A program made the translations under genes and the position numbers. The notes below the pieces were generated by a model. The model had not been told where the DNA came from and did not search any database. It was given only the letters and a program-made list of their open reading frames with translations. Below are positions 3,956 to 13,563 of a DNA stretch of 19,783 nt, piece after piece; the stretch's first letter is position 1, and each line of letters starts with the position of its first letter. This DNA is from a virus. Taxonomy: Duplodnaviria > Heunggongvirae > Uroviricota > Caudoviricetes. The stretch lies in IMG/VR virus record IMGVR_UViG_2778261691_000003, positions 1 to 19,783 of that record. One strand, given 5' to 3'.

Positions 3956-4031
3956 TGGTGCTGGTTAACGGACTTGAACCGCTACCCATTCGCTTACAAG
4001 GCGACTGCTCTACCATTGGAGCTAAACCAGC
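3956..4031 (-). tRNA. tRNA-Thr (anticodon UGU), phage-encoded
   Basis: 76-nt minus-strand sequence GCTGGTT TA GCTC CAATGGTA GAGC A GTCGC CTTGTAA GCGAA TGGGT AGCGG TTCAAGT CCGTT AACCAGC A CCA. Perfect 7-bp acceptor stem, 4-bp D stem, T-loop TTCAAGT, encoded CCA; anticodon loop CUUGUAA gives UGU. Confidence 0.75.
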
Positions 4032-4036
4032 ATGTT

Positions 4037-4111
4037 TGGCGGGACAGCGTGGGCTCGAACCACGATAAGAAGGTTAACAGCCTTCCGTAATGACCTTTAT
4101 ACGACTGACCC
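4037..4111 (-). tRNA. tRNA-like gene, possibly tRNA-Asn (anticodon GUU), atypical
   Basis: 75 nt: GGGTCAG TC GTA TAAAGGTCAT TAC G GAAGG CTGTTAA CCTTC TTAT CGTGG TTCGAGC CCACG CTGTCCC G CCA. Perfect T arm and anticodon stem, but one U-U mismatch in the acceptor stem and only a 3-bp D stem; lies 5 nt upstream of the tRNA-Thr. Confidence 0.45.
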
Positions 4112-4174: not shown

Positions 4175-4693
4175 CTAAATGGATAATTGCATGTCAAGGC
4201 TTTTAACAGCAACATGCTTAACTTTCTCAACACGTTTACGCATTTTGAAAGCATTTTGCATTGGCTGGTACAAAACAAATAACGACGCTTTCAGGATGTC
4301 GTCAATTTCGTTTCTACAGGTTGCCAGTGAAGGTTTTCTACATCCCTCGCCACCACGTCCACACATCTTGCGTGGCTTTGCAGTCGCGTGATAGTAGGAT
4401 GCAATTGCTCGCTTAGATGAACCATGAGCGTAGTAGCTGAGGAGGATGCCAAAGGCTTTCTTGTCAATGTACATGACGGAATCGACGACCTGAGAAATCA
4501 ACATTCCATCATCATCATTGCACATTGGCCTTGTCATAACTCTTCCCGGCTCTACGCTCTCCATGAACTTCGCTATTACGCTGCTCATGCGCTTTTCCAG
4601 ACGACCTGAATAAACCCATGCGCCCCACAGTTCAAGCCAGCCATTCAGCCACTCATGCTGTTCTTTGGTGAGGTTTAGTTCTCTTATGCCCAC
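4175..4693 (-). CDS. Q: late-gene antiterminator Q (non-lambda type; phage-82/21-like Q family)
   Basis: 172 aa with the WLELWGAW motif recalled from the Phage_antitermQ family; sits between ninI and the lysis genes; GTG start at 4693 preceded by GGGAGAAGG; overlaps the ninI stop by 10 nt. Confidence 0.7.
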
Positions 4694-7740: not shown

Positions 7741-9117
7741 TCATACGTCAGCCCCTTGTGCATATCGTCTGCCACGCGCAGCAGGTGCATTTGATGCTGT
7801 GCAAATCTGTCTGGCTTCATCCTGGTCACATGCAACAAAGTGTCCGTTACAGAACCGCTGGTAAACCGTACCAAGTGAGCCAAAACGGTTTTTCGTCACG
7901 ATGATTTCAGCAAATGGCGCGGCGCTACTGTTCTCGTCATATACCGCTTCCCGATAGAGCATGATGATTGAGTCTGCGTCCTGCTCAATGCTTCCTGAAT
8001 CACGCAAATCTGCGTTTGTCGGGCGTTTGTTTGGTCGCTTCTCAACATCGCGCGAAAGCTGACTTAGGGAGATAACAGGCGTTTTCAGGTCTTTCGCCAT
8101 CGCCTTCAGGCTTCCTGAGATGTGAGCAATTGCGAGGTCGTTGCGGTCTGCTTTCGGCTTCTCAATCAGGCCAAGATAATCCGCCATGATGAGTGACAGG
8201 TTTGGATTTTCCTGTTTGTGCCGCTCTGCGATTGAGCGAATTTCTTCTACCGATAACCGCGAGGCATCGACTACCCATACATCCAAATCTGCAAGCTGAC
8301 TCATGCCGTTAGCAACACGCGCCCAGCCTTCGTCATCCATCGATGCAGGATTTCGCAGTACGCTAACCGACATCCTCCCGGCGTTGGCAATGCTTCGCTC
8401 TGCAATCTGCAATGCGCTCATTTCCATTGAGAAAATCAATACCCCGCGCCGGACGTCAGAACCAGGAATAACGCGGCTTGCAACGCCTTCGGCAATCTTC
8501 AGCGCCAGCTCGGTTTTCCCCATACCAGGACGAGCAGCGATTATCACCAGGTCTTCCGCGTTCATCCCTCCGGTGATGGCATCAAGTTCTTCGATTCCGG
8601 TCTTCAGGGTATCTGACTCTTCTCCGTTCCTCAGACGCCTGTCAAGCGTGTCAGTGTAGTCGGTGATGATTTCCCCTAACCGTACCGGCTTAACCTCGTC
8701 ACGGGGCTTTCTGATGGCTGAAAGACGCTTTACAAGCTCATCCATCGCCTGACTCGATGCGTCGATGGTTCCGCTCTGAATTGGTTCACGCATTTCATCC
8801 ATGATTTCCAGCACCAGACGGCGGTGATAGTTATCCGCGACCATTCCGGCATATCCCTTCAGGTTTGCGGCACTCGGGCAGTTTTTGCTGGTCATCAGGA
8901 TTGACGTGAAATGCTCCTCTCCGCACGCCTCGGCAACCATCAGCGCATCGATTAGGTTTCTGTTTCTCGCCTGCTTGCGGATAACCTCGAAGGCTTTCCG
9001 GTAGAGCGGAATTGAAAACGCTTCCGGCTCCAGCGTTGCCAGAACGTCGCTGGCGGTTGGAGTTAATCCACCAATCAGCAGGCCACCGATAACGCTCGCT
9101 TCGATATCCTGTCTCAT
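7741..9117 (-). CDS. DnaB-family replicative DNA helicase (phage-encoded, in place of lambda P)
   Basis: 458 aa with Walker [17 protein letters not shown] and DnaB-like C-terminal region; ATG overlaps the O stop (ATGA). Confidence 0.9.
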
Positions 9118-9944
9118 GCAATCCCCCTGTCTGCAAACTTCCCTTCCCGTACTCCCGTTAACGAATCTTCCCTCAGCAGGTAATCAAAATCTGCCGTCCA
9201 GCCAGTGTCGTTGTCTCCGAAGTAAAACGGCTTGGCCTGATGCACAAACGCCCTGACATACGCTCTGAAACCGTCCACGTTTGGCGTTTTCAGTTGTGGG
9301 ATGATTTTCTTCAGGCGGCGTTTGCGTTTCTCGTTGACCGCAACAGCGTGTGGCAGTCTGTCACCGACTTCGGTGTTGTAGGCGTTCAGGAAGGATTCGT
9401 AGTCGATTCGTTCTGCCTTGCGCCGTTCAGGTTTAACCTGCCCATCGCCGCCCCCGTTAGGGGGTAAGGGGGTATTTGTATTTATTGTCTTTTGTATATT
9501 GTCTTTTGTGTTTGACTGATTCGGTAAATTGCTTTTTACCGATTTGGTGAAGCTTTGTTTTACCGAATTAGTAAATGTTTTACCGAATCCGTTAACTTTC
9601 GTTTTCCACTCGGAAATGTTTGTATTCATACCAACTTGACGCCCCACCTGAATGAGAACTCCCATTCTGATAAGCTCGTTTTTGGCGGTAGAGCATTTGG
9701 TTGGTGCCATGCCAGTGAGTTCAGCGAACTGTTCGTTTCCGATCCAATCTATTTTTTTGTTGTAACCGTATGTCTTGCGCCACACAGCCATAACAATCAG
9801 TAACTGATGTAGAGTAAGCCCAGAAAGCATGGCGGCTTCTAACAGTGTGTTTGCAGTCCGAGTGTAGCCATCTTCGAGTTCTGCCACGCGATGCTCCACG
9901 ACCTCCAGTTGAGGCCTGTAATCAGCTAACTTAACGACGCCCAT
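9114..9944 (-). CDS. O: replication initiator, O-like (lambda O-type N-terminal origin-binding domain, different C-terminal domain)
   Basis: 276 aa; [46 protein letters not shown] resembles the lambda O N-terminus; AGGAG lies upstream of ATG 9942-9944; iteron DNA lies in the linker-coding part of the gene. Confidence 0.85.
9470..9600. other. replication origin inside the O gene: AT-rich repeats plus four iteron-like TTACCGAAT-type motifs
   Basis: attgtcttttgt occurs twice (9483-9494, 9498-9509) in an AT-rich block; ATTCGGTAA at 9520-9528 and the inverse TTACCGAT/TTACCGAAT at 9537, 9560 and 9580, spaced about 20 bp apart. Confidence 0.6.
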
Positions 9945-10092
9945 GTTTCACTCCTGCTTTGGCTAGTCTGTAAACACCAACAAGGCGCTCTGCGAACGCC
10001 CTGTTATTTGCTGCGGCTACCACCAATCCCTCAGGTGAATCAGGGTGTCGAATCTCTTCTTTTTCCTGGTATTTCTTACGACGTTTTGCCAT
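9931..10092 (-). CDS. small basic ORF (53 aa) between cII and O
   Basis: ATG 10090-10092 preceded by CAGGAGTAATT, which resembles the lambda O ribosome-binding site as recalled; my translation [53 protein letters not shown]; its end overlaps the real O start by 14 nt. Below the 60-aa ORF-track cutoff. Confidence 0.35.
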   Translation of the reverse strand: MAKRRKKYQEKEEIRHPDSPEGLVVAAANNRAFAERLVGVYRLAKAGVKHGRR

Positions 10093-10100
10093 AATTACTC

Positions 10101-10178
10101 CTGTGGATTGATCCAGTAATGACCTCAGAACTCCATCTGGATTTGTTCAGAACGCTCGGTTGCCGCCGGGCGTTTTTT
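10101..10178 (+). ncRNA. oop: oop-like antisense RNA overlapping the cII 3' end (coordinates approximate)
   Basis: Plus-strand terminator GCUCGG-UUGCCG-CCGGGC + UUUUUU (10154-10178) sits in DNA that reads like the lambda cII 3' end / oop terminator as recalled; the 5' end is inferred from the lambda oop length, not seen. Confidence 0.5.
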
Positions 10179-10421
10179 ATTGGTGAGTCCATCAAGCGCA
10201 TACTTAAAAGCCCTGCTAATCGGACTGATGTCTGATGCCATTCCGAAAGCACACAAGACCGAAGCAATAAATCTCCAGTCCGTTCTGCTTATCTTCGATT
10301 CATGACAGCCAATCATCTTTGCCAGACCGCGCTGGGTAAGCGTTGACAGGTTGATGAGTAAATCTGTTTCTGCGCGATCAATTTCTCGCTGTGTTGGCTT
10401 GCTGTAACTTGCTTGTGTCAT
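10125..10421 (-). CDS. cII: CII transcriptional activator (chimeric: non-lambda N-terminal part, lambda-type C-terminus)
   Basis: 98 aa; the C-terminus TNKKRPAATERSEQIQMEF is the lambda CII C-terminus, while the first ~78 residues differ from lambda. Confidence 0.8.
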   Translation of the reverse strand: MTQASYSKPTQREIDRAETDLLINLSTLTQRGLAKMIGCHESKISRTDWRFIASVLCAFGMASDISPISRAFKYALDGLTNKKRPAATERSEQIQMEF

Positions 10422-10505
10422 TTGTTAATTTTCCAATAGTGAATAGTTAGTTGAAAGGTATGCGTGGAAACGCATATGGCCTTAGTTGGTCAGATATCTT
10501 GGGGC

Positions 10506-10551
10506 TCGCTTTGTCAGCGACGTAGGACGAATGTCCATTGTGAAAAGAGCG
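10506..10551 (-). promoter_or_regulatory. nutR-like site (boxA CGCTCTTTT, boxB hairpin with UGACAAA loop)
   Basis: Minus strand reads CGCTCTTTTCACAATGGACATTCGTCCTACG-TCGCTGACAAAGCGA between cro and cII; the boxB loop matches the P22/21-type boxB recalled from memory, not lambda boxB. Confidence 0.55.
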
Positions 10552-10558
10552 GTGTTAC

Positions 10559-10768
<210 letters not shown>

Positions 10769-10856: not shown

Positions 10857-11573
<717 letters not shown>

Positions 11574-11760: not shown

Positions 11761-11982
11761 ATGAAAAAATCTGCAAAGCACTTTTTCAGCGCTATGGGCT
11801 CTATCCTTGACCTTTGCCCAGCAGGTAGCTACAGCGAGTATCATTCAAATGCTACAGACATCGACCTTATCAACTCAGATTGGGTTAAGGTAGGTAGTTA
11901 CGTTAGAGACGCTGTAACTGATAATGAGCAGAAAAAAATCCCAAAGAAAGCTTCAAACCGCCGCACCGAGAAATCTTGTTAA
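11761..11982 (+). CDS. hypothetical protein, ORF-A of the rex-slot cassette (likely N-terminal part of a frameshifted gene)
   Basis: 73 aa ORF with AGGA 8 nt upstream of the ATG; ends 58 nt after the start of the overlapping ORF-B; an A7 tract at 11932-11938 lies in the overlap. Confidence 0.45.
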   Translation: MKKSAKHFFSAMGSILDLCPAGSYSEYHSNATDIDLINSDWVKVGSYVRDAVTDNEQKKIPKKASNRRTEKSC

Positions 11983-12457
11983 CCAACCAACTCCGTTAGG
12001 GCGAGTTCAAGACGGTAAAACCGAACTGCTTATAAATGAGGTCGCAAAGAACCCTCAAGTTCTTGAGCGCCTCATGGACAGGCCAGATCTAGCTGGCATC
12101 ATGATGCAGGTGACTCACACTAGATCAGGGCCACTCCCAGACGCTGACGAATTAGCTAAGTACGAAAGAATATCTCCAGGATTCGCTCGCGAAATAATGG
12201 ACATGGCTAAGGCTGAGCAAAAACACAGACACGAGTATTACAAAGCAGGACAGAGGGGAGCAATTTGGCGAGATCGACTCGGACAGATCTTTGCGATGAC
12301 TTCTGTCTTTGTTTTCGCAGGAATTGCTTACAAGATGATTCAGCACGAGGCTTATGGCTGGGCTACCGGGCTTCTTGGTGCTGAGTTAGTTGCTTTAACT
12401 AGCGTGTTTATAATTGGAAGAAGAGACAAACCGAATCCAAAGCAAACTAAAAAATGA
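11924..12457 (+). CDS. membrane protein with two C-terminal TM helices (DUF2335-like motif), ORF-B of the rex-slot cassette
   Basis: 177 aa in the +1 frame relative to ORF-A, with no obvious RBS of its own; motif PLPDADELAKYERISPGFAREIMDMAKAEQKHRH followed by hydrophobic helices LGQIFAMTSVFVFAGIAY and GWATGLLGAELVALTSVFIIG. Confidence 0.55.
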   Translation: MSRKKSQRKLQTAAPRNLVNQPTPLGRVQDGKTELLINEVAKNPQVLERLMDRPDLAGIMMQVTHTRSGPLPDADELAKYERISPGFAREIMDMAKAEQKHRHEYYKAGQRGAIWRDRLGQIFAMTSVFVFAGIAYKMIQHEAYGWATGLLGAELVALTSVFIIGRRDKPNPKQTKK

Positions 12458-12951: not shown

Positions 12952-13335
12952 ATGACACGCAGAACTCAGTTCAAAGGCAATTCACGTTCTCGTCGTCGTG
13001 AGCGTTTAAAGGCAAAGGCATTAGCTAACGGCGTACTGGCCCGCGAAGAAGCAATAAGTTCAGAAGTATTACACCGCCCTACTCTAAGCAGAGCGCAGAT
13101 TCAGGCTAAAGGTACTCACGAAACGCCTGAGCGCATAGAAGACGCTAAGCCAATTAAGTTCATGGCACAGGACGTGATCTGGCAACAGAAAGAATACAGA
13201 CGCAATCTGGAGAGAGCGGCCATTGTGTACGCGAATGAGTTTGGACATAAGCAACCAGAAACTGGTGTATGTCTTCCAAACGTAGCCATTTACTCGGCAG
13301 GATACCGGAAATCAAAACAACTGACAGCGAGGTAA
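12952..13335 (+). CDS. N: antiterminator N (P22 gp24 / phage 21 type)
   Basis: 127 aa; arginine-rich N-terminus TRRTQFKGNSRSRRRERLKAKALANG and C-terminus AIYSAGYRKSKQLTAR resemble P22 gene 24 as recalled; preceded by CAGGAGG. Confidence 0.8.
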   Translation: MTRRTQFKGNSRSRRRERLKAKALANGVLAREEAISSEVLHRPTLSRAQIQAKGTHETPERIEDAKPIKFMAQDVIWQQKEYRRNLERAAIVYANEFGHKQPETGVCLPNVAIYSAGYRKSKQLTAR

Positions 13336-13338
13336 GTG

Positions 13339-13563
13339 ATGAATCAGACATACATTCCATCATGCTTGAGAAATCTGCCAAAGCAGAAAGCAAAGCCACG
13401 CAAGCAAGCCATAAAGGACGCTAAGTCAGAGGTTATTGATCAAGCAATACAATTGCTCAGGGAGGAGTTAAGAAGTGGCAAGCTCGAAGGAATGATGATG
13501 CCCTATCAGCGCGGATATCTTTCGGCGATTAGTAAGCTGGAAGTATTGAAGAGTGAATTATGA
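13339..13563 (+). CDS. hypothetical basic, coiled-coil protein (74 aa)
   Basis: ATG 13339 with GAGG 6 nt upstream, immediately after the N stop; no recognisable family. Confidence 0.5.
   Translation: MNQTYIPSCLRNLPKQKAKPRKQAIKDAKSEVIDQAIQLLREELRSGKLEGMMMPYQRGYLSAISKLEVLKSEL

Follow-up and report, generated by a model that had tools for sequence, protein, structure and literature searches.

The window analysed here, a stretch of 19,783 nucleotides from an IMG/VR virus record, represents, in reverse orientation, a lambdoid phage or prophage early region. The gene order is cI, cro, nutR, cII, orf53, O-like, DnaB-like. The cI gene (10860-11573, plus strand) combines Peptidase_S24 and HTH_3 domains and is of the lambda type by DNA identity, and cro (10559-10759, minus strand) matches Pfam Cro. 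This lambda-type cI-cro block, 97-100% identical to lambda, terminates at boxA near 10547. The nutR boxA, CGCTCTTT (10544-10551, minus strand), is its left-hand junction with an HK97-type segment holding nutR, tR1 and the cII leader (10422-10551, minus strand). Beyond cII (10125-10421, minus strand) are a 53-residue orf53-like gene (9931-10092, minus strand; phrog_1331), which is the first gene of an HK97-type replication module, an O-like gene (9114-9944, minus strand; Phage_rep_O) and a DnaB-like helicase gene (7741-9117, minus strand), the counterpart of HK97 gp55, which is annotated as "similar to DnaB". A Q-like gene occupies 4175-4693 on the minus strand and an N-like gene occupies 12952-13335 on the plus strand.

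Directly downstream of the Q-like gene, genes for tRNA-Thr(tgt) and tRNA-Asn(gtt) span 3956-4111 on the minus strand. On the other side of the window, lambda identity ends around the cI stop codon, at 11569, and between 11574 and 12950 rexA and rexB are replaced by two other ORFs. One encodes 73 residues (11761-11982; phrog_26284) and the other a predicted membrane protein of 177 residues (11924-12457; phrog_3996, category "moron"); HK97 has other genes, gp48 and gp49, at this position. The boxB element TCGCTGACAAAGCGA, at about 10505-10519 on the minus strand, and the N gene are both of the HK97 type, and the N gene of HK97 occupies the matching place in the HK97 record. Since cI and cro are of the lambda type while boxB and N are of the HK97 type, immunity and N/nut specificity come from different sources.

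A preliminary description of this DNA had placed cII at 10125-10421, and its coordinates, strand and translation were correct by the ORF list, which has an ATG-initiated ORF there on the minus strand with a product of 98 residues. The Pfam family PF05269 (Phage_CII) aligned to residues 1-92 of the product over profile positions 1-91 of 91 with a score of 123 bits, where the curated cut-off is 21.3 bits. In a PDB sequence search the sole match was lambda CII (1xwr, 1zpq, 8igr; E = 3.7e-10). The identical 98-residue protein is listed at NCBI as "CII family transcriptional regulator", from 139 contigs. Searched on its own, cII matches phages 21, HK022, HK97 and HK629 as well as many Stx phages, and it has matches in 1884 of 5426 complete E. 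coli genomes.

The location of the gene also fits the family, being after cro, nutR and tR1 and ahead of the replication genes, with its 5' end overlapped by a pRE on the opposite strand. Within the helix-turn-helix, A34, G38, S42, I44, S45, R46 and D48 are invariant among the window protein, lambda, 21, HK629, HK97, HK022 and P22 C1. Four of these, S42, I44, S45 and R46, are the SxISR recognition-helix residues, unchanged in lambda, P22 C1 and the 21/HK97-type proteins. Every CII-family feature that sequence can address was present in the window protein, which by homology is a full-length member of Phage_CII and a predicted CII-family transcriptional activator.

The preliminary description had regarded this gene as a chimera with a junction inside it, and the nucleotide comparison with lambda bore this out. 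Codons 79-98, the stop codon and the 15 nt beyond form a patch (10187-10110, minus strand) that is identical to lambda 38591-38668 at 78 of 78 positions and takes in most of oop. The rest of cII was lambda-identical at 99 of 243 aligned columns (41%). When we searched for the optimal two-segment split of cII, it fell at window 10187, lambda 38591, which is the first base of codon 79; downstream of it 63 of 63 columns were lambda-identical versus 99 of 243 upstream (Fisher p = 5e-21). A 60-column sliding window gave lambda identities of 25-57% across the cII body, 97% in the tail and 27-52% inside the next gene. This is a sharp breakpoint at the boundary of codons 78 and 79, and uniform divergence along the gene was not seen. 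At the protein level, BLASTP against lambda CII returned 39 identities in 88 positions, 20 of them in the tail and 19 in the body. The last 20 residues, LTNKKRPAATERSEQIQMEF, are residues 78-97 of lambda CII, so that the lambda-like C-terminus is one residue longer than had been claimed. A low-confidence AlphaFold2 single-sequence model of the protein (pLDDT 53.5) has a helix at residues 65-80 that terminates close to the joint, which is only suggestive of the joint being the end of helix 4.

To place each part of the locus among its relatives, we scored identities to the window segment by segment in a nine-way alignment. In the nutR-tR1-pRE leader (10422-10546), HK97 was identical at 125 of 125 positions and lambda at 29%. 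The cII body (codons 1-78; 10188-10421, minus strand), which includes the helix-turn-helix, was identical at 221-230 of 234 positions in seven 21/HK97-type phages, with the highest value reached by HK97, phage 21, HK022 and PDP110P1. The tail/oop patch (10110-10187), fully identical to lambda, was matched at 77 of 78 positions in PDP110P1, 76 of 78 in HK629 and 72 of 81 in phage 21, and at just 59 of 78 (76%) in HK97, HK022 and VT2-Sakai. In the next 20 bases (10090-10109) the HK97-type phages agreed with the window at all 20 positions and lambda at 17. Where the next gene begins (10040-10089), HK97 was 96% identical and lambda 27%. A 901-base stretch around cII was 97.2% identical to HK97 as a whole. 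Roughly 500 bp around cII thus hold four joints and five segments with differing nearest relatives, and within an HK97-like backbone the lambda-type tail forms an island of 80 bp. The joints sit at functional linkers, namely the nutR boxA, the boundary of cII body and tail, and a 33-bp block that holds pO signals and a ribosome-binding site.

These affinities qualify the earlier view that the cII body belongs to another lineage. Its low identity to lambda is real, but a foreign N-terminal domain it is not, since the whole protein matches Phage_CII; nor is the body foreign in a wider sense, being a widespread allele of the 21/HK97/HK022 type, to which the cII bodies of phages 21, HK97, HK022 and Stx phages are 94-98% identical.

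The equivalent of the oop antisense RNA is 77 nt long (10103-10179, plus strand), co-linear with lambda 38675-38599 and identical to it at 75 of 77 positions. Its overlap with cII (10125-10179) takes in the final 55 nt of that gene, among them the stop codon. Its predicted fold has two hairpins (-28.4 kcal/mol, z = -3.7). A terminator scan and folding both located the intrinsic terminator tO at 10149-10181 on the plus strand, where a G+C-rich hairpin of 12 pairs is followed by TTTTTTATT, in agreement with the earlier report of a lambda-like oop terminator overlapping cII. An Rfam search of the whole window found the two tRNAs as its sole matches and none at oop.

The lambda patch has its right-hand junction in the 33-bp block (10085-10117, minus strand; ACTGGATCaATCcACAGGAGTaATTATGrCAAA), recognised by alignment and from the work of Hayes et al. 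(PMC3349717), who place it at pO and the 5' end of oop and describe it as conserved across lambdoid phages. It contains the oop 5' end, the pO -10 element, and the ribosome-binding site and ATG of the next gene. Three of its positions vary, and at each of them the base in the window is that of the HK97 type. For this reason the downstream ribosome-binding site, which had been called lambda-like, cannot be regarded as specifically so; it lies within a pan-lambdoid block and has HK97-type variants. The pO -10 element CATAAT (10090-10095, plus strand) is conserved. The -35 region, TGGTAT, is off consensus at a spacing of 17 bp and lies inside the HK97-type orf53, whose 5' end is 96% identical to HK97 gp53. 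A hybrid pO of an analogous kind occurs in a lambda/P22 hybrid (PMC3349717). A consensus promoter scan reported pR alone and called neither pO nor pRE, which for pRE is expected because that promoter is activator-dependent. We therefore base the promoter assignments on co-linearity with lambda.

The claim that oop control of this gene is of the lambda type was supported in part. The target sequence overlapped by oop is lambda-type, and plasmid-expressed OOP is known to act on the cII of imm21 (PMC3349717), but the promoter has an HK97-type -35 region. With a lambda-type oop behind such a -35 region, the level of oop expression may differ from that in lambda, and oop output could be different as a result.

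The lambda-type end of the protein was also compared with what is described for the lambda degradation signal. All of the last 16 residues, KRPAATERSEQIQMEF, are identical to those of lambda (16/16). [quoted passage not shown] The same paper describes CII1-87 as active and CII1-77 as inactive. By these endpoints, the lambda-type piece (residues 79-98) would span about 10 residues needed for activity together with the degradation tail. According to a second-hand statement in PMC2995052, lambda CII does not need its disordered C-terminus to bind DNA. The lambda-type degradation tag that had been proposed for this protein is therefore present as far as its residues are concerned, and it would be predicted to work as in lambda.

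A pattern search found the repeat TTGCTGTAACTTGC (TTGC-TGTAAC-TTGC) within cII codons 4-8, on the strand directed towards cI (10399-10412, plus strand). A candidate -10 element, the TAnnnT hexamer TAATTT, follows at 10426-10431, 13 nt past the repeat. In lambda pRE, TTGCGTTTGTTTGC is likewise followed after 13 nt by AAGTAT, and both the position in the gene and the TTGC-N6-TTGC-N13 geometry match those of the window. The records of phage 21, HK629 and VT2-Sakai annotate the corresponding pRE site as a CII binding site, and wherever a sampled locus had a 21-type body (227 of 227), TTGC-N6-TTG(C/T) was found at pRE. We also located a paQ-like candidate for a CII-dependent antisense promoter, TTGCGTGGCTTTGC, antisense inside the Q-like gene (4368-4381, plus strand), with TAGGAT 13 nt later. 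It lies about 310 nt into the Q-like gene; for paQ of lambda the distance into Q is 287 nt. This site and its flanks were present in 19 IMG/VR loci, with cII bodies of either the lambda or the 21 type.

The preliminary description had expected the non-lambda body to confer a non-lambda DNA-binding specificity. That expectation is unsupported, given a pRE repeat with lambda geometry, a paQ-like site and an invariant SxISR. We infer that the window CII would recognise the same half-sites as lambda CII does at pRE, and we advise against reading a new DNA-binding specificity into the gene.

A second copy of the 14-mer TTGCGTGGCTTTGC was seen at 13390-13403 on the minus strand, inside a 75-residue ORF (13336-13563, plus strand). 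It is antisense to this ORF, which is just downstream of N, and is directed back towards N. The TTGC...TTGC of this copy is retained in 13 of 14 homologous loci, with GGGGCT or TGGGCT as the six intervening bases, a conservation that tells little because these loci are about 98% identical overall. The copy could be an additional CII site or a product of chance.

HK97 is the nearest relative in overall backbone. It has a lambda-type cI and cro, the same nutR-pRE leader and a nearly identical cII (gp52) body, and shares gp53, the O-like gene and the DnaB-like gene with the window. It differs in the other tail/oop allele, ITKKKSPAATEDFKQIDMQF. HK629 (JQ182735, AFM76531.1) resembles the window in the full arrangement of a 21/HK97-type body, a lambda-type tail and an HK97 gp53-like next ORF. 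Its cII protein and its downstream ORF are each 96% identical to those of the window, with cII substitutions that include E13D, I14V and A86E. Its record labels the oop stretch "lambda oop RNA with 2bp mismatch" and also marks a lambda-cII-type binding site. HK629 differs in having a P22-like cro and c2 immunity and another nutR (44% identity in the nutR segment).

In phage 21 (AJ237660, OL657228), whose cII recurs in lambda imm21 and DE3, the body is likewise followed by a tail and oop of the lambda type. An oop RNA is annotated in the AJ237660 record, as is a "border lambda immunity" within cII, and the phage 21 record gives the CII site at pRE as "ttgynnnnnnttgy". Its tail (cII at 1529-1828 of our locus L005) differs from that of the window by a 3-nt insertion and local changes, with PVCKTERS in place of PAATERS, and downstream it has lambda-type O and P and no HK97-type module. 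Lambda itself shares the family, gene position, pRE geometry, last 20 residues and nearly all of oop; it differs in the cII body, in its nutR, and in having O next instead of orf53 and a gp18-like gene. P22 C1 is a CII-family activator with a pRE site, TTGCGAGTGCTTGT, followed by oop-like signals, and it precedes a replication module (orf48/18/12) like that seen in the window. Its body belongs to the lambda-like lineage (SQISRWK..IPK..LLAVLEWGV) and is 25% identical to that of the window, and its tail represents a third allele, unrelated to the others.

The joint between body and tail is not peculiar to this genome. A 28-mer across it, joining 21-type body to lambda tail, occurred in at least 119 IMG/VR contigs, and the exact junction is also present in phages 21, HK629 and PDP110P1. 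The alternative joint, in which the same body is followed by an HK97-type tail, occurred in at least 120 contigs, and lambda's own joint in 78. A single 21-type body therefore bears two tail alleles, lambda-type or HK97-type. Each allele was seen with lambda-type O, HK97-type orf53 or HK022/P22-type orf48 downstream, and with lambda or non-lambda cro upstream. The particular combination of lambda tail and orf53 accounted for 9 of 116 sampled loci with the window-type joint. The body/tail joint is thus old and common to phages 21, HK629 and many prophages, and Hayes et al. had described the cII of phage 21 and lambda-imm21 as diverging from lambda to the left of oop (PMC3349717). The patchwork is an already known, widespread allele, annotated in phages and E. 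coli prophages.

Taken together, these comparisons point to a functional cII of the 21/HK97 class that carries the lambda allele of the last 20 codons with its overlapping oop, a mosaic produced by lambdoid recombination; we give this reading a probability of about 0.93. The lambda-type tail most likely reached the window genome by ordinary homologous exchange, with one crossover in the near-identical cII body and the other in the 33-bp block just past the stop codon. Because crossovers in these two shared sequences suffice, no illegitimate event is needed. By homology with lambda, CII would bind the TTGC-N6-TTGC repeat at pRE and switch on cI, and would probably act at the paQ-like site inside Q too. 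The lambda-identical tail would direct the protein to FtsH and rapid turnover, while antisense oop RNA would pair with the final 55 nt of the cII message.

It is very improbable that no recombination was involved and that the gene diverged by descent with its tail held in place by a triple constraint, on the protein, on oop and its terminator, and on the antisense target. Tails are in general better conserved than bodies (76% versus 41% between the HK97 type and the lambda type), and this one does overlap oop and the oop terminator. However, constraint cannot yield 78 identical positions of 78 beside a body at 41% with an edge sharp to one codon. A near-identical body bearing two tail alleles, each with several downstream modules, is reassortment rather than rate variation, and this two-allele pattern largely refutes an explanation by constraint alone.

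We also give little credence to the idea that an illegitimate crossover between the window genome and a lambda-like phage made the joint de novo. In its favour, the patch is flanked by sequence closest to HK97, which itself bears the other tail allele. Against this, the same junction 28-mer recurs across independent contigs and isolated phages, whose cro, N-terminal codons and replication modules differ from those of the window so that their descent from it is implausible, and homologous crossovers in the shared body and the 33-bp block are enough. An assembly or sequencing artefact joining reads of two prophages is a conceivable hazard in E. coli genomes, where it is common for several lambdoid prophages to share near-identical segments (the stretch is matched at up to six places per genome), but it is extremely unlikely here because the arrangement is also found in the isolated, fully sequenced phages HK629 and 21 and in many complete genomes, and the cII reading frame is intact.

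The finding has little import beyond annotation, although it is a clean textbook case of lambdoid mosaicism. We recommend annotating the gene as a phage 21/HK97-class CII-family activator whose tail and oop are lambda-type.

On the sequence evidence, the cII-tail/oop segment has been reassorted. Four alleles of it could be distinguished: lambda-type, a phage 21 variant, HK97-type and P22-type. We consider it rather doubtful that this segment of about 80 bp is a free-standing exchangeable cassette that tunes the frequency of lysogenisation. Were that so, the alleles would set differing CII half-lives and antisense control, and a swap of the segment could tune lysogenisation while leaving DNA-binding body, immunity module and replicon as they are.

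Two further observations concern the sampled loci with the window-type joint. About one-third of them carry the phage 21 tail variant (PVCKTERS). In 52 of the 116 loci (IMG/VR L010-L128), the 33-bp pO/oop-5' block is missing after the cII stop codon, and the sequence there begins, for example, with CAACATCCAACGAGG. These 52 loci, from which the usual oop start and promoter are apparently absent, keep the oop terminator and the overlap with cII.
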